From the NCBI RefSeq assembly GCF_988243305.1, contig NZ_OZ547136.1: a stretch of 64,000 bases of DNA; one strand, given 5' to 3'. The translations under genes were made by a program, and so were the position numbers. Each line of letters begins with the position of its first letter. Within the stretch, counting starts at the first letter, position 1. Shown here piece by piece: positions 21,942-64,000 of this stretch. Under the pieces are notes generated by a model. That model did no database searches. It saw only the letters and a list, made by a program, of their open reading frames with translations, and was not told the DNA's origin.

Positions 21942-22058
21942 CAGCGCACAAAAAAAGCGCACTTTTTGACTGGCACATTCGGCTGCCTCAACTAGGCTGA
22001 AAAATGGTGCGATCGGACTGGTCGTACCACAACCGGCAGCTAAATGGAGAGCACGAAG

Positions 22059-22295
22059 ATGAAAACCAGTGTGCGCATAGGCGCTTTTGAAATCGACGAC
22101 GGCGAATTACACGGCGAATCGCCGGGTGATCGAACGTTAACCATTCCTTGTAAATCAGACCCCGATTTATGTATGCAACTGGATGCCTGGGATGCTGAAA
22201 CCAGTATTCCTGCCCTGCTAAATGGCGAACACTCTGTCCTTTACCGTACCCGTTACGATCAACAATCTGATGCCTGGATTATGCGTCTTGCCTAA
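22059..22295 (+). CDS. yebV: Small protein YebV
   Basis: Start at MKTSVRIGAFEIDD... (78 aa); synteny. Confidence 0.85.
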   Translation: MKTSVRIGAFEIDDGELHGESPGDRTLTIPCKSDPDLCMQLDAWDAETSIPALLNGEHSVLYRTRYDQQSDAWIMRLA

Positions 22296-48292: not shown

Positions 48293-48841
48293 GTGAATAT
48301 TAATTATCCTGCTGAATATGAAATTGGTGATATCATCTTTACATGTATAGGTGCTGCCTTATTTGGTCAAATATCAGCTGCATCAAATTGCTGGAGTAAT
48401 CACGTCGGGATCATTATCGGTCATAACGGTGAAGACTTTCTGGTTGCAGAAAGCCGTGTTCCCCTCTCAACCATCACTACGCTATCCCGTTTTATTAAAC
48501 GCTCTGCTAATCAACGCTATGCTATAAAGCGATTAGACGCCGGGCTAACAGAACAACAAAAACAACGAATTGTTGAACAGGTTCCCTCCCGGCTACGCAA
48601 ACTTTACCACACCGGTTTTAAATACGAATCTTCGCGCCAGTTCTGTTCAAAATTTGTCTTTGATATTTATAAAGAGGCACTATGTATTCCGGTGGGTGAA
48701 ATAGAGACGTTTGGAGAACTGTTAAACAGCAATCCAAATGCAAAACTCACTTTCTGGAAATTCTGGTTCCTGGGTTCTATTCCGTGGGAGCGTAAAACCG
48801 TCACGCCAGCCAGTTTGTGGCATCATCCGCGTTTGGTGTAA
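48293..48841 (+). pseudogene. yebB: yebB with its 3' end interrupted by IS10
   Basis: Frame reads ...SLWHHPRLV then stops inside the IS; the same frame resumes after the IS at 50168 (LIHAEGVETPQPELTEAV*). Start placed at a probable GTG (MNINYPAEY...). Confidence 0.75.
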
Positions 48842-50167
48842 GGAGATCCCCTCATAATTTCCCCAAAGCGTAACCATGTGTGAATAAATTTTGAGCTAGT
48901 AGGGTTGCAGCCACGAGTAAGTCTTCCCTTGTTATTGTGTAGCCAGAATGCCGCAAAACTTCCATGCCTAAGCGAACTGTTGAGAGTACGTTTCGATTTC
49001 TGACTGTGTTAGCCTGGAAGTGCTTGTCCCAACCTTGTTTCTGAGCATGAACGCCCGCAAGCCAACATGTTAGTTGAAGCATCAGGGCGATTAGCAGCAT
49101 GATATCAAAACGCTCTGAGCTGCTCGTTCGGCTATGGCGTAGGCCTAGTCCGTAGGCAGGACTTTTCAAGTCTCGGAAGGTTTCTTCAATCTGCATTCGC
49201 TTCGAATAGATATTAACAAGTTGTTTGGGTGTTCGAATTTCAACAGGTAAGTTAGTTGCTAGAACCCATGGCTCCTTTGCCGACGCTGAGTAGATTTTAG
49301 GTGACGGGTGGTGACAATGAGTCCGTGTCGAGCGCTGATTTTTTCGGCCTTTAGAGCGAGATTTATACAATAGAATTTGGCATGAGATTGGATTGCTTTT
49401 AGTCAGCCTCTTATAGCCTAAAGTCTTTGAGTGACTAGATGACATATCATGTAAGTTGCTGATAGGTTTCCAGTTTTCCGCTCCTAGGTCTGCATATTGT
49501 ACTTTTCCTCTTACTCGACTTAACCAGTACCAACCCAGCTTCTCAACGGATTTATACCATGGCACTTTAAAGCCAGCATCACTGACAATGAGCGGTGTGG
49601 TGTTACTCGGTAGAATGCTCGCAAGGTCGGCTAGAAATTGGTCATGAGCTTTCTTTGAACATTGCTCTGAAAGCGGGAACGCTTTCTCATAAAGAGTAAC
49701 AGAACGACCGTGTAGTGCGACTGAAGCTCGCAATACCATAAGTCGTTTTTGCTCACGAATATCAGACCAGTCAACAAGTACAATGGGCATCGTATTGCCC
49801 GAACAGATAAAGCTAGCATGCCAACGGTATACAGCGAGTCGCTCTTTGTGGAGGTGACGATTACCTAACAATCGGTCGATTCGTTTGATGTTATGTTTTG
49901 TTCTCGCTTTGGTTGGCAGGTTACGGCCAAGTTCGGTAAGAGTGAGAGTTTTACAGTCAAGTAATGCGTGGCAAGCCAACGTTAAGCTGTTGAGTCGTTT
50001 TAAGTGTAATTCGGGGCAGAATTGGTAAAGAGAGTCGTGTAAAATATCGAGTTCGCACATCTTGTTGTCTGATTATTGATTTTTGGCGAAACCATTTGAT
50101 CATATGACAAGATGTGTATCTACCTTAACTTAATGATTTTTACCAAAATCATTAGGGGATTCATCAG
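48839..50167 (-). mobile_element. IS10 insertion sequence (1329 bp)
   Basis: 402-aa IS10 transposase ORF; outside end reads CTGATGAATCCCCTAATGATTTTGGTA at 50167; identical 9-bp direct repeats cgtttggtg at 48830-48838 and 50168-50176. Confidence 0.88.
48852..50060 (-). CDS. IS10 (IS4-family) transposase
   Basis: 402-aa ORF MCELDILHDSLYQFCPELHLKRLNSLTLACHALLDCKTLTL... matching the recalled Tn10/IS10 transposase. Confidence 0.95.
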   Translation of the reverse strand: MCELDILHDSLYQFCPELHLKRLNSLTLACHALLDCKTLTLTELGRNLPTKARTKHNIKRIDRLLGNRHLHKERLAVYRWHASFICSGNTMPIVLVDWSDIREQKRLMVLRASVALHGRSVTLYEKAFPLSEQCSKKAHDQFLADLASILPSNTTPLIVSDAGFKVPWYKSVEKLGWYWLSRVRGKVQYADLGAENWKPISNLHDMSSSHSKTLGYKRLTKSNPISCQILLYKSRSKGRKNQRSTRTHCHHPSPKIYSASAKEPWVLATNLPVEIRTPKQLVNIYSKRMQIEETFRDLKSPAYGLGLRHSRTSSSERFDIMLLIALMLQLTCWLAGVHAQKQGWDKHFQANTVRNRNVLSTVRLGMEVLRHSGYTITREDLLVAATLLAQNLFTHGYALGKL

Positions 50168-50234
50168 CGTTTGGTGTTGATTCATGCGGAGGGAGTGGAA
50201 ACGCCTCAGCCGGAACTGACCGAGGCGGTATAAC

Positions 50235-52012: not shown

Positions 52013-52129
52013 GCTGCCTCTTCGTTGACTGCCTTCGCTCATCCCATTCACATAGTTATCTATGCTCATGGGAGTTCACTCAGTTGCCGCCTCGATGCAA
52101 CGCGAATGATTTCGTGTATTTGAGTCATA

Positions 52130-53902
52130 TCAGTTATTCTCTGCCTTCTTCACAACCTGAATGCTCAGCTCAGCCAGTGCAGTCGGGTTAGCAAAGCTCG
52201 GTGCTTCAGTCATCAGACACGCTGCCGCCGTGGTTTTCGGGAAGGCGATAACGTCACGGATATTGTCGGTGCCGGTCAGCAGCATGGTCAAACGGTCAAG
52301 ACCGAATGCCAGGCCTGCGTGCGGCGGAGTACCGTATTTCAGGGCGTCGAGCAGGAAGCCGAATTTCTCGCGCTGTTCCTCTTCGTTGATACCCAGAATA
52401 CCAAACACCGTCTGCTGCATATCACCATTATGGATACGCACAGAACCACCGCCCACTTCGTAACCATTGATGACCATATCGTAAGCGTTCGCCACCGCAT
52501 TTTCCGGTGCAGCTTTCAGTTCTGCTGCCGTCATGTCTTTTGGTGAGGTGAACGGATGGTGCATTGCCGTCAGGCCGCCTTCACCGTCGTCTTCAAACAT
52601 CGGGAAGTCGATAACCCACAGCGGTGCCCATTTGCTTTCGTCGGTCAGACCAAGGTCTTTACCCACTTTCAGGCGCAGTGCACCCATCGCGTCGGCAACA
52701 ATTTTCTTGTTGTCGGCACCGAAGAAAATCATATCGCCATCTTGCGCGGCAGTACGATCCAGAATGGCTTCGATGATTTCTGCATTAAGGAACTTCGCTA
52801 CCGGGCTGTTGATACCTTCCAGACCTTTCGCGCGCTCGTTAACTTTAATGTAAGCCAGACCTTTCGCGCCGTAGATTTTAACGAAGTTACCGTATTCGTC
52901 GATCTGTTTACGGGTCAGCGATGCGCCGCCCGGAACGCGCAGAGCCGCTACGCGACCTTTCGGATCGTTCGCCGGACCTGCAAATACTGCAAATTCAACG
53001 GATTTCAGCAGATCGGCAACGTCGGTCAGTTCCATCGGGTTACGCAGATCCGGTTTATCAGAGCCGTAACGGCGTTCGGCTTCCGCAAAGGTCATTACCG
53101 GGAAATCGCCCAGATCCACGCCCTTCACTTCCAGCCACAGATGACGCACCAGCGCTTCCATCACTTCACGCACTTGCGGCGCGGTCATGAAAGAAGTTTC
53201 CACATCGATCTGAGTAAATTCAGGCTGACGATCAGCGCGCAGGTCTTCGTCACGGAAGCATTTAACGATCTGATAGTAACGGTCAAAACCGGACATCATC
53301 AGCAGCTGTTTGAACAACTGTGGGGATTGCGGCAGTGCGTAGAATTTACCTTTGTGCACACGAGAAGGCACCAGGTAGTCACGCGCGCCTTCCGGCGTGG
53401 CTTTGGTCAGCATCGGAGTTTCGATGTCGAGGAAGCCGTGGTCATCCATAAAACGGCGCACCAGGCTGGTGATTTTAGCGCGGGTTTTCAGGCGCTGAGC
53501 CATTTCCGGGCGACGCAGGTCGAGGTAGCGGTATTTCAGACGCGCTTCTTCGGTGTTGACGTGGTTAGAGTCAAGCGGCAGAACATCTGCGCGGTTGATG
53601 ATAGTCAGCGAGGACGCCAGCACTTCAATTTCGCCGGTCGCCATATCGCGGTTAATATTTTTTTCGTCACGCGCACGTACGGTGCCCGTGACCTGAATGC
53701 AGAACTCATTACGCAGTTCAGAGGCCAGCTTTAACGCGTCCGCACGATCCGGATCGAAAAATACCTGCACGATACCTTCGCGGTCGCGCATATCGATGAA
53801 GATCAGGCTACCAAGATCACGACGACGGTTGACCCAACCACACAGAGTCACCTGCTGCCCCACGTGGGACAAACGGAGCTGTCCACAATATTCTGTACGC
53901 AT
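52130..53902 (-). CDS. aspS: Aspartate--tRNA ligase
   Basis: 590-aa class II aminoacyl-tRNA synthetase. Confidence 0.97.
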
Positions 53903-54211
53903 GAGATATCCCTTAACTTAGCTGCCGGCGGATGCCCCCTGCTGCGCAGGTGACCAAGTCGCAGCGTTAGCTGTATGTCACAACTGAATGAAAAAAGGCG
54001 GCTATTATACTGGAAATTCTGCCGCACCGTAAGAGCCTGGCCCGCGCTGGAACACCTCGTTACCACTTTATATCGGGCCTGAAATCAGACTCTACGCCAG
54101 TTTGCTATAAAGGTGTTGCCCGAACTCATAAAAATTAACAAAATTTGTCGTTCCGCCATCGGCTAATCGCATTAAGGTGAGAGGCACTATTTTGTTTTGT
54201 CAGGAGTCATC

Positions 54212-54778
54212 ATGCTTGAACTTAATGCTAAAACCACTGCGCTGGTGGTGATTGATTTACAAGAAGGCATCTTACCTTTTGCCGGAGGTCCACATACTGC
54301 CGATGAGGTGGTTAATCGCGCCGGGAAGCTGGCGGCGAAATTTCGCGCGAGCGGTCAGCCCGTGTTTCTGGTGCGCGTTGGCTGGTCTGCCGATTATGCC
54401 GAAGCATTAAAACAGCTGGTTGATGTCCCCTCCCCCGCGAAAGTGTTACCCGAAAACTGGTGGCAACATCCTGCTGCATTAGGTGCAACCGACAGCGATA
54501 TCGAAATCATCAAACGTCAATGGGGTGCGTTTTACGGTACGGATCTGGAGTTGCAACTGCGCCGCCGGGGTATCGATACAATAGTATTATGTGGGATCTC
54601 GACCAATATCGGTGTTGAATCCACCGCCCGCAATGCCTGGGAACTCGGTTTTAATCTGGTGATTGCCGAAGACGCCTGCAGCGCCGCCAGCGCCGAGCAG
54701 CACAATAACAGCATCAACCATATCTACCCACGCATCGCCCGTGTGCGCAGTGTGGAAGAGATCCTCAACGCATTATGA
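54212..54778 (+). CDS. yecD: Isochorismatase-family hydrolase YecD
   Basis: Start at [20 protein letters not shown]... (188 aa). Confidence 0.93.
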
Positions 54779-54885
54779 TTTACATCGGTCTGCCGCAATG
54801 GTCGCATCCTAAATGGGTGCGGTTGGGGATCACCAGCCTTGAAGAGTATGCCCGCCACTTTAACTGCGTGATACGGAATTTTTAA
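54775..54885 (+). pseudogene. yecE: 5' fragment of yecE, interrupted by prophage integration
   Basis: ATG overlaps the yecD stop (ATGA) and encodes [32 protein letters not shown], matching recalled YecE for about 32 codons; the frame then diverges and stops after 4 codons (IRNF*). Confidence 0.8.
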
Positions 54886-54997
54886 AAATCACTAAAGAAC
54901 GCCCAAGAGCATGTTTTTTATTTAGAAGAATCAAAGCGTTGTATTTCCATGTCATATAAAAATCGGCAAAGTTCATATGTAACAAAGTGTCCCAATC

Positions 54998-55046
54998 ATG
55001 CCCCAAAATGCCCCACAACAAATATTTTTGCCCCATGCATGCCCCA
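54998..55046 (+). repeat. Four direct repeats of (A)TGCCCCA in the prophage arm
   Basis: atgcccca at 54998, 55008, 55039 and tgcccca at 55029. Confidence 0.6.
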
Positions 55047-55067
55047 AAAAATCACTTTCCTTCACCC

Positions 55068-55119
55068 TTGACACTGTTTATCCATACAGTTAAAAATGAT
55101 ACTGTATACAAACACAGTG
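55068..55119 (+). promoter_or_regulatory. Promoter with two tandem LexA boxes upstream of the dinI-like gene
   Basis: TTGACA at 55068-55073; CTGT-N8-ACAG boxes at 55072-55091 (cactgtttatccatacagtt) and 55100-55119 (tactgtatacaaacacagtg); RBS agaggg before the ATG. Confidence 0.75.
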
Positions 55120-55132
55120 TAGAGGGACTTTT

Positions 55133-55381
55133 ATGCGTATTGAAATCTGCATAGCCAAAGAAAAAATGACTAAAATGCCAACCGGTGCTGTGGATGCGTT
55201 AAAGGAAGAATTAACTCGGCGCATCAGTAAGCGTTATGACGATGTAGAAGTGATCGTAAAAGCCACCAGCAATGATGGGCTTTCTGTTACACGCACAGCA
55301 GATAAGGATTCTGCAAAAACATTTGTTCAGGAGACTCTGAAAGATACCTGGGAGTCTGCTGACGAGTGGTTTGTTCACTAA
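55133..55381 (+). CDS. DinI-family DNA-damage-inducible protein (prophage-encoded)
   Basis: 82-aa [12 protein letters not shown]...[11 protein letters not shown] resembling E. coli DinI (MRIEVTIAK...TWESADDWFV). Confidence 0.85.
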
Positions 55382-55449
55382 TAAACACGTAAAATCGGTA
55401 ACGGCTGGAAATCATTCAATACTCGCACTATCGAAAGTTCACCAGCCAA

Positions 55450-55495
55450 CCGCAGCACGTCCTGCATACGTCGTGTCTGCGGTTTTTCTTTTTCG
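55450..55495 (+). terminator. Hairpin and T-run downstream of the dinI-like gene
   Basis: ccgcagcacgtcctgcatacgtcgtgtctgcgg followed by tttttctttttcg. Confidence 0.55.
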
Positions 55496-55496
55496 C

Positions 55497-55766
55497 TTAC
55501 ATTGTGTCTGGTTCTTCCGGCCACTCAATATCAGGTGCAGTTGATGTATCAACACGGTTCAGCAACACCCGATATTTATTCCATGCCTCCAGCAACGATC
55601 TTTCTTCCTCCGTTGCGATTTCCAGATCTACAGCATCCTGCAGTGGCGCAATATACTCACTGAATTCCTGGATGTAGAACTGTGTGGTGACGGTCTTCCA
55701 GCCATTCGGCTCCTGCTGTATCGAAGCATACCAGGCTATTTCAATATCGCTATGCTGCGGCAGCAT
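55497..55766 (-). pseudogene. Tail fiber assembly protein remnant (C-terminal Tfa domain with unrelated N-terminus)
   Basis: C-terminal about 50 aa ([45 protein letters not shown]) near-identical to the full tfa at 56546-57130; about 150 bp of DNA is a direct repeat of the tfa 3' end. Confidence 0.7.
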
Positions 55767-55822
55767 TTAACCCCTTGTAATTCATCGCCATAATTGATTT
55801 AATTCACAAATAAAACTATAAC

Positions 55823-56491
55823 ATGGTGAAATCAATGAAAAAAAACACAGATGATGGGGCTAAAATTTACACACCACTTACCCTAAAGCTTTATGACTGG
55901 TGGGTTTTGGGAGTATCAAATCGGCTTGCATGGGGATGTCCTACAAAGGAACACCTTCTTCCACACTTTCTGGAACATTTAGGTAACAACCATCTGGATA
56001 TTGGTGTTGGAACTGGGTTTTATCTTACTCACGTACCTGAGAGTAGTCTGATATCTTTAATGGATTTGAACGAAGCTAGCCTGAACGCGGCATCTACAAG
56101 GGCTGGGGAATCAAAAATTAAACATAAAATTAGCCATGATGTTTTTGAACCTTATCCCGCGGCGTTACATGGTCAATTTGATTCCATTTCCATGTTTTAC
56201 CTTCTTCACTGCCTGCCTGGAAATATATCTACAAAAAGCTGTGTAATACGCAATGCGGCGCAGGCCTTAACTGACGATGGAACTCTATACGGAGCCACAA
56301 TTCTTGGCGATGGAGTTGTGCACAATAGCTTCGGTCAAAAACTGATGCGCATTTACAATCAGAAAGGCATCTTTTCAAACACAAAAGATTCCGAAGAAGG
56401 CTTAACACATATACTCTCAGAGCATTTCGAGAATGTTAAAACCAAGGTTCAAGGTACTGTAGTAATGTTTTCCGCTTCAGGGAAAAAATAG
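55823..56491 (+). CDS. Class I SAM-dependent methyltransferase of unknown specificity (prophage moron); start may be the ATG at 55835
   Basis: 222-aa ORF with Rossmann motif I (LDIGVGTGFY), acidic post-I residue (LMDLNE) and motif II-like FDSISMFYLLHCLP; no DNA-methyltransferase motifs (DPPY or PC dipeptide); local composition visibly AT-rich. Confidence 0.8.
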   Translation: MVKSMKKNTDDGAKIYTPLTLKLYDWWVLGVSNRLAWGCPTKEHLLPHFLEHLGNNHLDIGVGTGFYLTHVPESSLISLMDLNEASLNAASTRAGESKIKHKISHDVFEPYPAALHGQFDSISMFYLLHCLPGNISTKSCVIRNAAQALTDDGTLYGATILGDGVVHNSFGQKLMRIYNQKGIFSNTKDSEEGLTHILSEHFENVKTKVQGTVVMFSASGKK

Positions 56492-56499
56492 CATCCAAC

Positions 56500-56535
56500 C
56501 GCAGCACGTTCTTGCTTAAGACGTGCTGCGGCATA
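56500..56535 (-). terminator. Hairpin terminator downstream of tfa
   Basis: Perfect 11-bp stem ccgcagcacgt / acgtgctgcgg with a T-run on the minus strand. Confidence 0.6.
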
Positions 56536-56545
56536 ATCCCAATGA

Positions 56546-57130
56546 TTACTCACTGACAGGGTTCGTAGGCCACTCAATATCAGGTGCAGTTGATGTATCA
56601 ACACGGTTCAGCAACACCCGATACTTCTTCCAGGCTTCCAGCAACGAGTTTTCTTCCTCCGTTGCGATTTCCAGATCTGCAGCATCCTGAAGCGGCGCAA
56701 TATGCTCACTGGCTACCTGCATCAGGTTGTTTTTTGTTTCTTCCGCCTCCCGGATCCGGAACAGTTTTTCTGCTTCCGTATCCTTCACCCAGGCTGTGCC
56801 GTTCCACTTCTGAAACTCCCCTTCCGGCGATAACCAGGTAACATTTTCCGGTAACGGACCGAGTTCAGAAATAAATAACGCGTCGCCGGAAGCCACGTCA
56901 TAAACCGTTTTACCCCGATGGTCTTCAAAGAGATGCCACGATGACTCATCACTGTTGAAAACAGCCACGAAGCCAGCAGGAATATCTGGTGGTGCAATAT
57001 CGGTACTGTTTGCTGGCAGACCTGTATGAGGCGGAATATATGCGTCACCTTCACCAATAAATTCATTAGTTCCGGCCAGCAGATTATAAATTTTTATGGT
57101 CCGTGGTTGTTCACTCATTCTGAATGCCAT
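56546..57130 (-). CDS. tfa: Tail fiber assembly protein Tfa
   Basis: 194-aa ORF overlapping the stf stop by 1 nt; matches lambdoid Tfa. Confidence 0.92.
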
Positions 57131-59826
57131 TATGCAAGCCTCACAATGTAGTTAAATGCGATGTTTTTGACGGTGTTTTCCGCGTTACCCGCAGCGTTAA
57201 CGGTGATGGTATGTCCATGTGAACCAATCGCAACGGAGTGCGTATGAGCACCAATACCGACAGTATGCGCGTGTGCACCTGCAGATGCTGCTGTGCCGGA
57301 CAGTGAGTGGCTATGATTACCATCTGTACTGGTATTCGCTAACCACCCCGTAGACATACCTACTGAGCCTTGTACACCCCAGGTATTTTGACCTGAGCTT
57401 GTATAACCATATTGATAAGTATCTTTAAAAACACTGGGGTTAAATCGACGGCCATCTCTATGGCTGTGATTACCAGCTGCATTCGTGCTGCCACTTAAAC
57501 TATGGGTATGCGCACCAGTGTTATTCGTGGATTTAGTGCCGTAATCAAACGACGATGTGGTTTTCGTCCCCAAATCCGTACTGGATGCGCTGGCGCTGTG
57601 GGTGTGCGATTTAATGCCGTCCCGTTCCTGAGACAATACGGCACGACCACTGGCAGGTTTGCCCTTAATCGTCCAGCCACGCATATCAGGGATCACGCCT
57701 GACGGATAAGCGGCTGCAAGTTCCGGGTAGGCAGATTTGTCAAAAGTCTGCCCCTGCATCAGGGCATAACCAGACGGAACGGTATCCGATGGCCACGGGA
57801 TTGGTGCGCCAGGCGGATAAAACTGCTCTGATGGCGTATAGAGTGAATAAACTGTACCGTCCGTTAACCCTTCCGGCTTATTAGCAGAATATGCTGGTGA
57901 CGTATGAATCGTCACGCTGGCATTACTGGTATAATCCCATTGAATATTTACACCAGTCGCATAATTTCCGATTGCAACGTAAATATCGTAAGTATCACCA
58001 GATGTATTGACCCAGGCAAAATTTGTAAACCCTGTCGATGTGCGCTGCCATAAAGCACCAGTAATCCCCTTCGGATTACCATTACCTGCACGCAAAACAA
58101 GTTCAGATATACCTGCCTGTTGAGGTGAACCGACGTTAAATCCAGCGCCACCAATCAACGTAATTGAAACAACAGAACTCGCCTGTGGCATGGTTACCGT
58201 TGCTAATTTGAACCAACCAGCACCACCGCTGAATGACATTGTTGTTGAGTTAAGCGTACCAATATCTTTCGGCGTCAGTGTTATATCCTCCGAAAGCGCC
58301 TTACCATTCACCTTACGGTCAGAAGGTACCCGATCATTCGCATTGTCATTCGCTGCTTTAACTGCCTTCGGTGTCGCGGCAAGCGTTTCAGACGTACTGT
58401 TTGTCGCACTGCTGAGCTGTACTATCCCCTTTTTCGTCGTGCTCGCATCCTCAAGCGCCACGGCGGATGCAATATCCTCTGCCCGTTTTGCCGCTGTCTC
58501 AGCGCGCGTTGCTGCGGATTCTGCCGTACTTTTGCTCTGTGCTGCCGCTGTCGCACTGCCAGCAGCCTCTGTCGCCTTTGTGGATGCCGTCGTGGCGCTG
58601 CTCTTCGCTGCTGACGCCTGTCTGGTCGCCTCATCTTTTGAAGCAGACGCCGATGATGCCGATGACGCCGCCGAACTGGCGGACGATGCCGCTGCCGTTT
58701 TTGAGGATTCTGCGCTGGTTTCCGACGCTTTCGCGTTCGTTTCGGATGTCTTCGCTGAGGAAGCAGACCTCGCTGCTGCGCTGGCCTGTTCAGTGGCTTC
58801 GCCAGTCTTCGTTGTGGCTGTTGAAGCGGATGATGCGGCGCTTTCTGCCGATTTTCCGGCGGCGGTGGCACTGACTGAGGCCTGCCCGGCACTTGTTGAT
58901 GCGGCACTGGCGGACGACGCAGCCGCTGTTTTTGAATCTGCCGCAGCTGAGGCACTCTGTCCCGCTGCCGTTTCAGAAGACCTGGCGTTCGTCTCGGACG
59001 TTTTGGCCGCCTTCGCAGAATTTGCTGTCGCCGTTGCCGAGGAAGCTGCGCTGCTGGCGCTCGAGGCTGCGCTCGTTTCTGATGATTTTGCCGCCTCTTT
59101 TGAAGCCGACGCATCCCGGGCTGAGGTGGCAGCTTCTGACGCTTTCGTGGTCGCGGTGGATGCAGAAGTGGCTGCTGATTGTTGTGACGCTGCGGCATTC
59201 GTTTCTGACGTTTTCGCCGCAGCGGCACTGGTGGCCGCCGCGCTTTTTGAGGACTCTGCAGCGGCAGCACTTTTTTCCGCTTCAGTGGCCTTTGTTGATG
59301 CCGTTTCTGCGCTGGAAGACGCTGACTGAGCCGACGACGCGGCCTGTCCGGCTGACATGCTGGCTGCGCGTGCTGAGCCTGCAGCATCAGTCGCATGGGT
59401 TGCCGCCTCACGGGCTGATGTGCTGGCATCGCCGGCTGACTTCTTCGCGGCTGCCGTGTTCTGTGCCACTGCGGACGCGTTACGCTCCACCTCTTCCACC
59501 ATCACTTCAAAACGGCGCAGTGCCTCCGGTCGGACATCATCCTCCGTCATGGCACCGAGAAAATCATTCAGCGTACCTGGTCTGGAACCTTCATAGACGG
59601 TAATGGTCCCGGCATGTGAAGGCGGAAAACCTTCAACCAGCAGGGTGACGCTGTACTGACCATGCTCAACATCCATGCTGTAACGTCCGGCTTCATCCGG
59701 ATTTTCAGAGGCCACCGTGTTCACCACCACCGTGCTGCTGGTTCGTCTGGCCTTCAGCACAATGGTGCAGTTCTGTACTGGTTTTCCTGTGCCATCTTTA
59801 AGCACGCCAGAAATTTTTACTGTCAT
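57130..59826 (-). CDS. stf: Side tail fiber protein Stf
   Basis: 898-aa ORF with conserved N-terminus ([17 protein letters not shown]...), long Ser/Ala/Thr-rich repeat region, and C-terminal HxH-repeat region (HTHS, GAHTHS, GNHSHS, GSHGHT). Confidence 0.93.
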
Positions 59827-59837
59827 ACTTTTCCACC

Positions 59838-59875
59838 AATAAAAAAAGCCCGCAGCAGTGACGCCACGGGCTTCA
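59838..59875 (-). terminator. Hairpin and T-run between lom and stf
   Basis: Minus strand reads agcccgtggcgtcactgctgcgggc followed by ttttttt. Confidence 0.5.
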
Positions 59876-59977
59876 GGACAGTGTAACTTTACGTTTCCTC
59901 AAACGCAGTTCACCCCATAAGGTGGATGAACCTGCGTATCATAACAATATTTACAGAAGATAAATCGGCGTCTGTTG

Positions 59978-60577
59978 TCAGAAACGGTATCCGATACCAA
60001 CAATAAATGCATCCGTTCGCCAGTCGCCACTACCGGAACCTTCATAAGCAAGGTCAATGGTCACGGATTCGGTCGGGTTAAACTGCACGCCAGCCCCCCA
60101 CGCCAGAGACGTGTTGCTGTGGCGACCGTCATCACTTCCGGTCAGCACATCGTGCGTTTTCCCCTTGTTGTCAGTTACGCGGAGATAATCCCCGGAGAAA
60201 GTCGACACACGGCTGTAAGACACACCCGCCATCGCATACGCGCTGAACCATTCATTCACGCGCACAGACGGCCCCGCCATTACGCTGAACCAGCGGTTAC
60301 GAACGGAATCTTCATGCCAGCGGGTATCGCTGTAACGGGTCAGCTGGCGATTCTTGTCTCCTGCATAGCTGAATGACGTCACCAGCCCCAGTGTGTCCGT
60401 AAACTCATAACGGTATTTCACGTTAATCCCGTTCAGATCATCACTGCCGGGGACGTTCGTCGAGGCATGAAGATACCCCGCGCTCAGCGTGGACTGATGT
60501 TCAGACGCCCATGCAGGCGCACCGGATACGGCCAGACAAATGGCTGCGGACAAAATTGCTGCACAAACTTTACGCAT
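59978..60577 (-). CDS. lom: Outer membrane protein Lom (Ail/PagC/OmpX family)
   Basis: 199-aa ORF with signal peptide and beta-barrel ending in the aromatic residue typical of outer membrane proteins (GIGYRF); position between J and stf as in lambda. Confidence 0.92.
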   Translation of the reverse strand: MRKVCAAILSAAICLAVSGAPAWASEHQSTLSAGYLHASTNVPGSDDLNGINVKYRYEFTDTLGLVTSFSYAGDKNRQLTRYSDTRWHEDSVRNRWFSVMAGPSVRVNEWFSAYAMAGVSYSRVSTFSGDYLRVTDNKGKTHDVLTGSDDGRHSNTSLAWGAGVQFNPTESVTIDLAYEGSGSGDWRTDAFIVGIGYRF

Positions 60578-60599
60578 AATTACCTCTCGCTTTTCTGCA

Positions 60600-60635
60600 A
60601 TAAAAAAGGCGTCACTCCTGACGCCCTTTATTGGG
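60600..60635 (-). terminator. Hairpin and T-run between J and lom
   Basis: Minus strand reads aaagggcgtcaggagtgacgcc followed by ttttttatt. Confidence 0.5.
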
Positions 60636-60647
60636 GTTATAAATATT

Positions 60648-63600
60648 TCAACGAATACTGATGCCGGAAGCGGCTTTTTTGGTCACAATCACCGTACAGT
60701 CGGTGATATTGCCTGCCCCCTGATTGCCTTTCTGGAAAATCTTAAACTCCAGAGTGACGCTACCACCACCACTAGGCATATCAATAACTGCACTGTAACT
60801 ACCGGGAATGGCCCCTTTAGTTTCTCTGGATGCGATTAATACGCCGTTTTTGCGAACTTCAAAACCATAACCCGTGTATCGCGTGCCTCCTGGGTTATTT
60901 CCGCTCCCCGGATCGTCATACGCTATACCGTTAAAAATAATGGGCGGAATAATAATCTGGCGGTCAAAGTTATGATCATCGCTGATGGTGACTGTAACCG
61001 TACCGTTTGGTGTTTCCGTGTTACCCCACGTACCGACTTTTTTCGGGAAGGCTTTTGATACAGCTTTAACGAAATCCCCTCTGACCTGGGTCGCCTCCAG
61101 CATGCCCTTAATCGTACAGTTCTGGTTAATCTTGACATTGTTGAGCGTTCCTGAGTTCGCATTCACACTGCCACTGATATCCGCATTTTTAGCGGTCAGC
61201 TTTCCGTCTGATGTCAGGGAAAATACCGGAGGACTGCCACCGCTGGTAATGGTGGGGGCCGTCAGGCGCTTCAGGAACACGTCGTTCATGAATATCTGGT
61301 TGCCCTGCGCCACAAACATCGGCGTTTCATTCCCGTTTGCCGGGTCAATAAACGCGATACGGTTAGCGGCAACCAGAAACTGGCTCAGCTTGCCTTCCTC
61401 CGTGTCCTCCATGCTGAGGCCAATACCCGCGACATAATGTTTGCCGTCTTTGGTCTGCTCAATTTTGACGCCCCACATGGCATTCCATTTATCGTTAGCG
61501 TCCTTCCACTCTTTCGAAAACTCCTCCAGTCTGCTGGCGTTATCTTCCGTCAGCTCAAAGTTTTCCAGCAGTTCCTTGCCGAGATGCGTTTTATTGATCA
61601 ACCCTTTATAAAAATTCAGATAACCTTCCGCATCATCGCTCGCCCGACCGACGGCCTCCACAAATGCCGATTTACCAACGGTGTTCACGCTGCGGATATA
61701 AAAGTAATAATCATAACCTGGCTTAATATTGCTACTGGCGGCTATCCAGTACAGCGCCGTACCAAGATAACGCGCGCTGGTTTCAACCTGCCTGATATCG
61801 ATAATCCGCTTTTCCGAGAACCAGAACTCAAACTGCACCGTCGGGTCATATACAGCCAGTTTCGGGACCGCTGTTATCTGAAAATACCCTGGTATCAGTT
61901 CAATAGTGACAGGCGCTGCCGGTGCCGCAATCCGGAACGATACCGATGCCGGATCGCCCTGCTGCCCCCACGCATTTACCGCCCGGACCGTCAGCGTGTA
62001 ACGCCCCAGCGCCAGTTGCCTGAAGCGGTATGTGGTTTCCGCCGTCCGGGCCGTGCTGACCAGCCGCTCACTGCCGTCATCCGCTGTTACGGTCAGACGG
62101 AGCAGGAAGCTCACGCCCTTCACCACCTTCGGCGTGTCCCAGCGCGCCAGCACCTGGTATTCCCCGCTGTCTGCGGTGACTTCTGCGGTCAGGTGCTGCA
62201 CCGCTGGCGGCGTGACACCATTTACCGTGCCGCTCTGGTCGCCGTCAAAGTGCGCCCCGTTATCCACGATGGCCTCTTTTTCCGGTACATGCTGCACGGC
62301 GGTGATGGCATACGTGCCGTCGTCGTTCTCACGGATACTCACGCAGCGGAACAGGCGCTGGCGCAGCGTCGGCAGCTTCAGCCCCCATACGCTGTATTCA
62401 GCAACGCCGTCAGGAACACGGCTCACTTTCACCTTCACGCCGTCGGTGACGGACTGAACCTCCACGCTGACCGGACTCCCCTGCCCGTCAACCAGGCTTA
62501 TCAGCGTGGTGCCGGAAGATGGCAGCGTGATTTCACGGTCGAGCGTCAGCGTCCGGGTCTGGCTGTTTACCGCCAGCACGCGCCCGCCGGTGCGGATACC
62601 GGCATAGTCATCATCGCAGATTTCAATGACATCGCCCGGTACATGGCGAAGCCCTTCGGCACCCACGCTGAAGTCCACGGTCTGCGTTTCCAGCAGTTCT
62701 GTTTTAATCAGCCACAGCCCGGCGCGGTGTGCCTGCCCCCGGCTGGTACAGCCAAAAGCATCCATCTTCGTGACGTTACGACCGTAACGGGCAATGGCCT
62801 GCGTGTCCTCCACAAGCTCTGTCGCCGTCTCCCAGCCGTTATTCGGGTCAATCCAGTTCACCTCAACGGCATTATGGCGGTCCTTCAGGGCGCTGAAGCT
62901 GTAGCGGAACGGCGCGCCATCATCCGGCATCACCACATTACTGCGGTTATAGGTCCACACCTTATCCGACGGTCGGTCCTGCACGAACGTCAGCGTCTGC
63001 CCGTTCCATACCGGCATACAGCGCATCGCCGAGCAGAAATCACTGAGCACATCCCACGCCTTACGCTGTGTGGTCAGCCAGGCATTACAGGTGATGCGCG
63101 GCTCCGTGCCGCCAAAACCATTCGGTACCAACTGGTCGCAGTACTGGCCGATAACGTACAGCGCCCATTTGTCCACATCTGCCGCACCAAGACGTTTCCC
63201 CATGCCGTAGCGCGGGTGGGTCAGCATATCCCACAGACACCAGGCCATGTTGTTGCTGTATGCTGGCTTTAACGTTCCGTCCCAGATACCGCTGTATTGC
63301 CGCGTCTGCGGGTTATAGTTCGACGGCACCTGCAGAATACGCCCGCGAAGATGATAATTACGGCTCACCTGCTGGCTGCCGAACTGCTCCGAGTCCACCT
63401 GCACGCCGACCAGTGCCGTGTTCGGGTAGCACTGTTTCACATCGATGATTTCGGTGTATGACGACCAGAGCGTTTTGTTCTGCAGCTGGTCTGTGGTGCT
63501 GTCCGGCGTCATCCTGCGCATCCGGATATTAAACGGGCGCGGCGGCAGGCTACCCACCACCACCGAGGCCAGATACTGCGAGGTGGTTTTGCCCTTAATG

Positions 63601-64000
63601 GTGATGTCTTTTTCCGTCACCCAGCCACCGTTACGTTGTATCTGAACCAGCAGACGGACTTCCGACGGATTCCTGTCACCCTTTGAGGTGTTTTCCACCA
63701 GTGCCTGTACACCGAAGGTAAAGCGCAGACGGTCGATGTTTGCAGACGTAATGGTGCGGGTGATCGGCGTGTCATATTTCACTTCCGTACCCAGCACCGT
63801 CTCGGAGCCGGAGGATTCAAACCCCTCCGGCGGTGTCTGCTCCTGCTCACCGGCACGGAACACCACCGTGACACCGGAGATGTTGGTATTCCCCTCAGTG
63901 TCCAGCACCGGCGTACTGTTCAGCAGCACGCTTTTTAATCCATCCACCGGACCTTCAACCGGCCCTTCGCTGATGGCATCGATCACACTCAGCAACTGCG
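60648..64000 (-). CDS. J: Tail tip host-specificity protein J; 5' end lies beyond the window
   Basis: At least 1115 aa closely resembling lambda J from [11 protein letters not shown] onward; lambda J has about 20 further N-terminal residues, so the true start is outside the window. Confidence 0.93.

Follow-up and report, generated by a model that had tools for sequence, protein, structure and literature searches.

Chromosomal yecE of Escherichia coli holds what is very probably the tail-side edge of a lambda-like prophage

Introduction

The stretch of DNA analysed here, called the window below, comprises 64,000 nucleotides of an Escherichia coli genome (NCBI RefSeq assembly GCF_988243305.1, contig NZ_OZ547136.1). 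Within it the gene yecE starts normally and soon breaks off, which raises the questions of what interrupted it, where exactly the foreign sequence begins and whether the element behind it could be a Shiga toxin phage. Occupancy of yecE by lambdoid phages with a P27-type integrase is already documented. A review lists the gene among the integration sites of Stx phages (PMC8065619). In O145:H28 its occupants were Stx1a phages in 11 strains, Stx2a phages in 8, an Stx2d phage in 1 and non-Stx phages in 2 (PMC8112680); an Stx2d phage of O80:H2 integrates in yecE (PMC9751135), and so does the stx2e phage P27 (record AJ298298). A preliminary description of the sequence had called yecE a known site for lambdoid phages, Stx phages included, and these sources bear it out.

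Results

The break in yecE and its chromosomal flank

The features around the break are the following.

54213..54778, plus strand: yecD, isochorismatase-family hydrolase, intact, upstream of the junction (K-12 yecD alignment; yecD annotation in relatives)
54775..54885, plus strand: truncated yecE' ORF, 32 yecE codons followed by four phage codons (IRNF), stop codon at 54883-54885
54860..54870, plus strand: 11-bp att core TTAACTGCGTG, equal to attL and attR in the P27 record AJ298298
54871..55060, plus strand: phage att arm, tail-side half of attP, non-coding (alignment with phage att arms)
54988-55046 (59 bp): five direct TG(C/T)CCCA repeats, all on one strand (pattern and repeat search)

In the list of open reading frames the yecE ATG (54775-54777) overlaps the yecD TGA (54776-54778), the normal start that the preliminary description had reported. 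Alignment with K-12 yecE identified 54775-54870 as codons 1-32 (96 nt with one substitution); the similarity stops sharply past the GTG at 54870, and the sequence to the right of this position shows none in the same alignment. The earlier claim that phage sequence interrupts the gene about 32 codons in thus holds, and the interval then given for it, 54775-54885, proved on translation to be exactly the truncated ORF. The core, for whose placement alignment with an uninterrupted yecE had been recommended, lies at 54860-54870 by its identity to the attL and attR of P27. The equivalent of the truncated ORF in strain S1-ISR-02-A is called a pseudogene with missing C-terminus by PGAP. No 3' part of yecE was found elsewhere within the 64-kb window. 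A 58-aa minus-strand ORF at 54860-55036 was rejected as spurious; it overlaps the att arm and is unannotated in relatives.

The host side of the break is E. coli chromosome, with ruvC, yebC, nudB and aspS on the minus strand followed by yecD on the plus strand; it is 97.5% identical to K-12 over 4.7 kb and keeps the chromosomal gene order aspS-nudB-yebC-ruvC. The att core lies at codons 29-32 of yecE, between true chromosomal flanks. The match of the sequence to a host-phage junction in yecE is far beyond chance.

Further upstream, an IS10-like element of 1,329 bp (48839-50167) is inserted in the 3' part of yebB. It contains a 402-aa transposase ORF on the minus strand (48852-50060) and is flanked by a 9-bp direct duplication, CGTTTGGTG, at 48830-48838 and 50168-50176. 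One of its termini reads TAAGGAGATCCCC; the canonical IS10 inside end we take to be CTGAGAGATCCCC. The element is absent from K-12, from S1-ISR-02-A and from all fetched relatives with a near-identical prophage.

Phage genes beyond the att arm

Past the att arm the window continues with phage genes up to its end.

55074-55089 and 55102-55117, plus strand: two LexA-box-like sites, CTG-N10-CAG (pattern match; inverted repeat)
55133..55381, plus strand: dinI-like gene, 82 aa (phrog_189, RecA filament binding protein DinI, E=5.7e-31)
55497..55766, minus strand: small tfa-like ORF, 89 aa (phrog_2341 over its full length, E=6e-60; C-terminal parts of tfa families)
55823..56491, plus strand: class I SAM-dependent methyltransferase, 222 aa (phrog_2132, E=7.9e-157)
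56546..57130, minus strand: tail fibre assembly protein Tfa, 194 aa (phrog_105, E=1.9e-99)
57130..59826, minus strand: side tail fibre Stf, 898 aa (phrog_295, E=1.9e-217)
59978..60577, minus strand: Lom outer-membrane protein, 199 aa (phrog_108, E=1.6e-109)
60648..64000, minus strand: J, central tail fibre and host specificity protein, of which the C-terminal ~1115 codons are visible before it runs off the window end (phrog_31, E=0)

By their PHROG assignments, J, lom, stf and tfa stand in lambda order beside the att arm and form a lambda-type tail module, parts of which are ~92-94% identical in nucleotide sequence to lambda, HK629 and HK630; J has 1137 aa in relatives. Because the tail genes point towards the junction and the att arm has dinI beside it, as in the isolated phage CharmingMan, the junction is the tail-proximal and integrase-distal one, which is called attR in the P27 record. 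The integrase and the 3' part of yecE therefore lie beyond the window.

Relatives annotate a DinI-like product for the gene at 55133..55381. The LexA-box-like sites upstream of it overlap a promoter-like sequence, TTGACA-18-AAAAAT, at 55068-55097, and since predicted LexA boxes coincide with a promoter-like site, SOS control of the dinI-like gene is suggested. The methyltransferase is a cargo gene between two tfa-like ORFs. Matches to Methyltransf_12/23/25 were found in relatives, and the records of phages 2G7b and ev243 annotate a methyltransferase for it. The small tfa-like ORF has a C-terminal segment in common with Tfa, and the methyltransferase gene is accordingly bracketed by two minus-strand ORFs with this common segment (55497-57130). 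A DNA invertase is annotated in the matched tail-fibre region of the related phages Kati, PhiR68_2 and 2H10. The methyltransferase segment resembles a cassette that was swapped at the end with the tail-fibre genes.

The tail-side att arm and its repeats

From 54871 onward the sequence matches the last 199 bp of phage PhiR49_2 at 100% identity. Alignment of the arm, which also took in S1-ISR-02-A, showed homology with P27 (its right att arm) and with CharmingMan (its attP region). CharmingMan was taken for comparison, and the PhiR49_2 record, cut at the prophage ends, is without attP. A scan of IMG/VR for free attP with the exact arm returned only host-phage or prophage-in-prophage junctions. 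Judged by core, position in yecE and arm homology, all of which it shares, the junction belongs to the P27-type yecE att family.

The motif TG(C/T)CCCA occurs 19 times on both strands of the 64-kb window, as against 15.8 copies expected by chance, and five of these copies fall within the arm. Their distances from the core are +118, +129, +139, +159 and +170; these are kept in the attP of P27 and of CharmingMan, where the spacers are divergent. Two more copies occur on the other arm at -93 and -82, inside the 3' end of int. The repeats are probably arm-type integrase binding sites, for which they are candidates by position and conservation. The TG(C/T)CCCA arm motif, together with a 7-bp exchange region for this integrase family, appears not to have been described before.

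The crossover region

The crossover was mapped on 26 junctions inspected directly, 15 of them tail-side and 11 int-side. The mapping makes use of a polymorphism in codon 31 of yecE: of 5,426 complete E. coli genomes, 3,781 contain the intact-site 44-mer with TGC and 1,369 the one with TGT. (Searches with 64-mer junctions for C versus T were swamped by matches to intact yecE and were replaced by these 44-mer attB counts.) The corresponding base, 54867, was C in 15/15 tail-side junctions from different genomes. The int-side junctions (n=11), which all come with one integrase protein and several of which have identical phage arms, carried T in 8 cases and C in 3; strain S1-ISR-02-A has C at this position on the tail side and T on the int side. 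The base at 54867 would accordingly be derived from the phage at the tail-side junction and from the host at the int-side junction, and the last four bases that read as yecE, 54867-54870, are most likely of phage origin. Base 54859, just to the left of TTAACTG, is the host T in tail-side junctions and a phage G or A in int-side ones.

Since 54859 is host and 54867 is phage at the tail side, and the reverse applies at the int side, we infer from this natural variation that strand exchange is confined to the 7-bp TTAACTG at 54860-54866. Seven base pairs is the overlap size expected for a lambda-type tyrosine integrase. An int-side junction would read CAT[GA]TTAACTG[CT]GTGGAGGGCAAC, with the int-side arm followed by yecE from codon 33, and the attP of an excised circle would read …CAT[GA]TTAACTGCGTGATACGG….

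Taken together, the sequence at 54860-54870 is very probably the tail-proximal junction of a lambda-like prophage that entered chromosomal yecE through site-specific recombination by a P27-type tyrosine integrase. The P27-type enzyme would recombine the core TTAACTGCGTG of attP with its exact counterpart at yecE codons 29-32, exchanging strands within the 7-bp TTAACTG. The first 32 yecE codons would stay behind yecD, run into the att arm and end after four phage codons, and the other 240 codons would follow closely on int at the far end of the prophage.

The other end of the prophage and occupancy of the site

A second junction, in which the core leads into the 3' part of yecE, was found in 11 related genomes. 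In S1-ISR-02-A a prophage of ~46 kb ends with xis and int, followed by the 3' part of yecE (240 codons); int stops 19 nt short of the core, and its product shares 97% identity with P27 Int and 85% with the CharmingMan integrase. Relatives with the same junction as the window encode a 437-aa Int and a DUF1233 excisionase. The yecD|dinI junction is present in 281 of the 5,426 complete genomes, and ~276 of the 5,426 are without an intact 44-mer attB; since the two counts agree, the yecE site is occupied in ~5% of complete E. coli genomes.

Immediately before the core, the int-side arm carries a diverged copy of yecE codons 19-32, ISRLDFNTRHVNCV versus host ITSLEEYARHFNCV, in frame with the gene and ~61% identical to it over 44 nt (hand count of the alignment). 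PGAP calls the int-side part of yecE a 256-aa DUF72 protein with an ATT start. An in-frame TGA is located five codons upstream of this ATT, and no ATG, GTG or TTG is found in the arm ahead of the GTG at codon 32. It is improbable, in our estimate, that integration remodels yecE so that its 3' 240 codons form a chimeric ORF, which would run in the same direction as int and shortly behind it. The DUF72 domain covers YecE residues 21-249 (Pfam), and the break takes away the N-terminus of the protein together with the start of this domain. Since both are lost and the other phage arm is without a canonical start codon, yecE is likely to be inactivated by the break.

Two genomes showed departures from this arrangement. 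In BEC1-S17-ESBL-09 (NZ_AP022298.1) the match to window positions 40000-64000, with the tail-side junction, lies on the plus strand at ~2.83-2.85 Mb, and the int-side junction is on the minus strand at 2,216,505-2,216,559, ~630 kb from the tail-side junction. This suggests a large inversion or rearrangement with one end in the yecE prophage, and because the two junctions are so far apart in this genome, the partner junction need not be adjacent. In a metagenome scaffold from ENA (L041, 2841-4314) the 3' part of yecE is shortened to a DUF72 ORF of 133 aa, which is followed by a gene for a large serine recombinase of 507 aa; in that genome yecE may also serve another mobile element, at a point further downstream.

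Comparison with known systems

The nearest described system is P27 (phiP27, AJ298298), which has the same 11-bp core at the same position in yecE and a homologous tail-side arm over ~175 bp, the TG(C/T)CCCA positions included. Past ~175 bp the two part: P27 has a contractile-tail module (sheath, baseplate) and stx2e and no dinI at the arm, whereas the phage in the window has lambda-type J, lom, stf and tfa together with dinI and the methyltransferase. The yecE prophages of STEC O145:H28 (Nakamura et al. 2021, PMC8112680) occupy the same locus and likewise have a short att duplication at both junctions. Their Stx2a phages have attL/R of 21 bp, whereas the phage arms here match yecE exactly over 11 bp (7+4); beyond these the next ~33 bp are the diverged yecE copy, at the ~61% identity counted by hand, and no stx was seen.

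Among individual phages, PhiR49_2 ends in this arm and dinI, 100% identical over the 199 bp, and has a P27-type int at its start. PhiR26_1 and PhiR29_1 resemble the window at ~95% in the region with tfa, methyltransferase, stf, lom and J, and CharmingMan has the uninterrupted order int-attP-dinI-tail fibre. All four differ in being mosaic, with 77-95% identity outside the common modules, and none is the same phage.

Phage lambda uses a tyrosine integrase with a 7-bp exchange region and clustered direct repeats on both arms, and its attP is flanked by int on one side and by the tail-fibre end of the genome on the other. The system in the window is like it in the size of the exchange, in repeats ~80-170 bp from the core on both arms (here candidate arm sites) and in the layout of int and tail-fibre genes around attP. 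It differs from lambda in the core, in the arm motif TG(C/T)CCCA and in the target, which here is inside a protein-coding gene and in lambda is the gal-bio intergenic region.

Closest relatives and the state of the prophage

The closest relatives of the tail region were found by exact-protein look-ups; such a look-up had no match for Stf, and for a DnaC-like protein, which is very widespread, it led to other genomes. Among complete E. coli genomes the best match to a 24-kb query reached 88% coverage with 97.8% identity; CP056263 and CP056604 are near-identical relatives. In L012-L021 identity to the window (52126-64000 compared) is 99.5-99.8% across junction and tail region and only ~97% in the flanking chromosome, a difference which suggests that the phage has recently passed between E. 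coli lineages by horizontal transfer. The closest (L012 and L017-L020) have full lambda-type structural and lysis modules, and relatives at 99.5-99.8% identity carry Nu1, A, W, B, C, D, E, FI, FII, Z, U, V, G, T, H, M, L, K and I. The late region of the closest relatives has the order Q, porin gene, tRNA-Met/Arg/Arg, nanS-p and holin. Judged by its relatives, the prophage is probably complete and has a cognate integrase.

The main rival still standing is that the junction belongs to a defective remnant, either just a tail end or a prophage lacking large internal segments, which has lost the ability to excise. The window ends within J, and two relatives with the same junction and tail genes, L013 and L015, have large internal deletions in which the portal gene is fused to J or the terminase genes are truncated. 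Against this, all visible phage ORFs are intact, including the 898-aa stf and 1115 codons of J without a stop, and the full modules are present in L012 and L017-L020, the closest relatives. We regard a remnant as unlikely, but as a reading with some weight.

Much less probable is that the rest of the prophage belongs to an Stx-converting phage, in which stx would stand between Q and the lysis genes. What speaks for it is the use of yecE by Stx1a, Stx2a, Stx2d and Stx2e phages, the att core and arm common to the Stx2e phage P27 and the window, and the tRNA cluster and nanS-p in the relatives, which in Stx phages flank stx. However, there is no stx in the window, which does not include the region from Q to lysis, and a tblastn search with StxA and StxB of P27 against the window and 50 fetched loci matched P27 alone. 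In the closest relatives only 490 bp separate the tRNAs from nanS-p, which is too small for stx. The 30 best phage-record matches to 55000-64000 were all non-Stx lambdoid phages (PhiR26_1, PhiR29_1, mEp460, HK629, HK630 and others), and the yecE prophage of S1-ISR-02-A has no stx annotated. The hint at an Stx phage in the preliminary description is thus not upheld by the closest relatives, which are without stx both by tblastn and by the size of the tRNA-nanS-p gap. Phage genomes being mosaic, stx in the rest of the prophage keeps a small probability, but a Shiga toxin phage is in our judgement very improbable here.

The sequence could also be a secondary copy of a yecE segment, of the attB-in-prophage kind, with one prophage inserted in another, or a fossil junction within a phage genome. 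Such copies exist: a 21-bp attB with 79 bp of yecE-like sequence was described inside ompW prophages (Nakamura et al., PMC8112680). In IMG/VR two loci (L005, 4155-4185; L007, 5756-5786) have ~46 bp of yecE-like sequence with core and arm adjoining other prophage DNA, and a relic with ~79% identity is present in phi80 (JX871397, 23293-23441), where the record annotates it as a DUF72 N-terminal fragment, and in mEp237 (21997-22154). These junctions and the relic are consistent with the published attB-in-prophage copies. In the window, in contrast, the yecE homology extends over the full 96 nt from the true start overlapping yecD and is contiguous with aspS-nudB-yebC-ruvC in chromosomal order, at the 97.5% identity to K-12 over 4.7 kb given above. 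Synteny and the complete yecE 5' end refute this reading, to which we assign next to no likelihood.

Weakest of all, with a negligible chance of being right, is a strain-specific yecE allele or local rearrangement past codon 32, which had nothing in its favour beyond a caveat in the preliminary description and is refuted by the loss of yecE similarity and by the 100% match to a phage end that leads straight from 54870 into phage tail genes; chance similarity was considered too and rejected as an account of the junction.

Discussion

Since Shiga toxin phages use the locus at which this prophage ends, the full genome deserves a routine stx screen, although the relatives make a positive result unlikely. 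For the host gene, the sequence points to inactivation. Were the chimeric ORF translated after all, lysogens would make a YecE with a remodelled N-terminus under phage control, from the int transcript, and integration would amount to gene remodelling instead of a knockout.

With the insertion of lambdoid phages into yecE known before, the analysis adds a narrowing of the predicted exchange region to the 7-bp TTAACTG and, for this family of integrases, a conserved motif that may mark the arm-type sites. The limits set by TTAACTG and the candidate motif could help to define prophage boundaries precisely at yecE.
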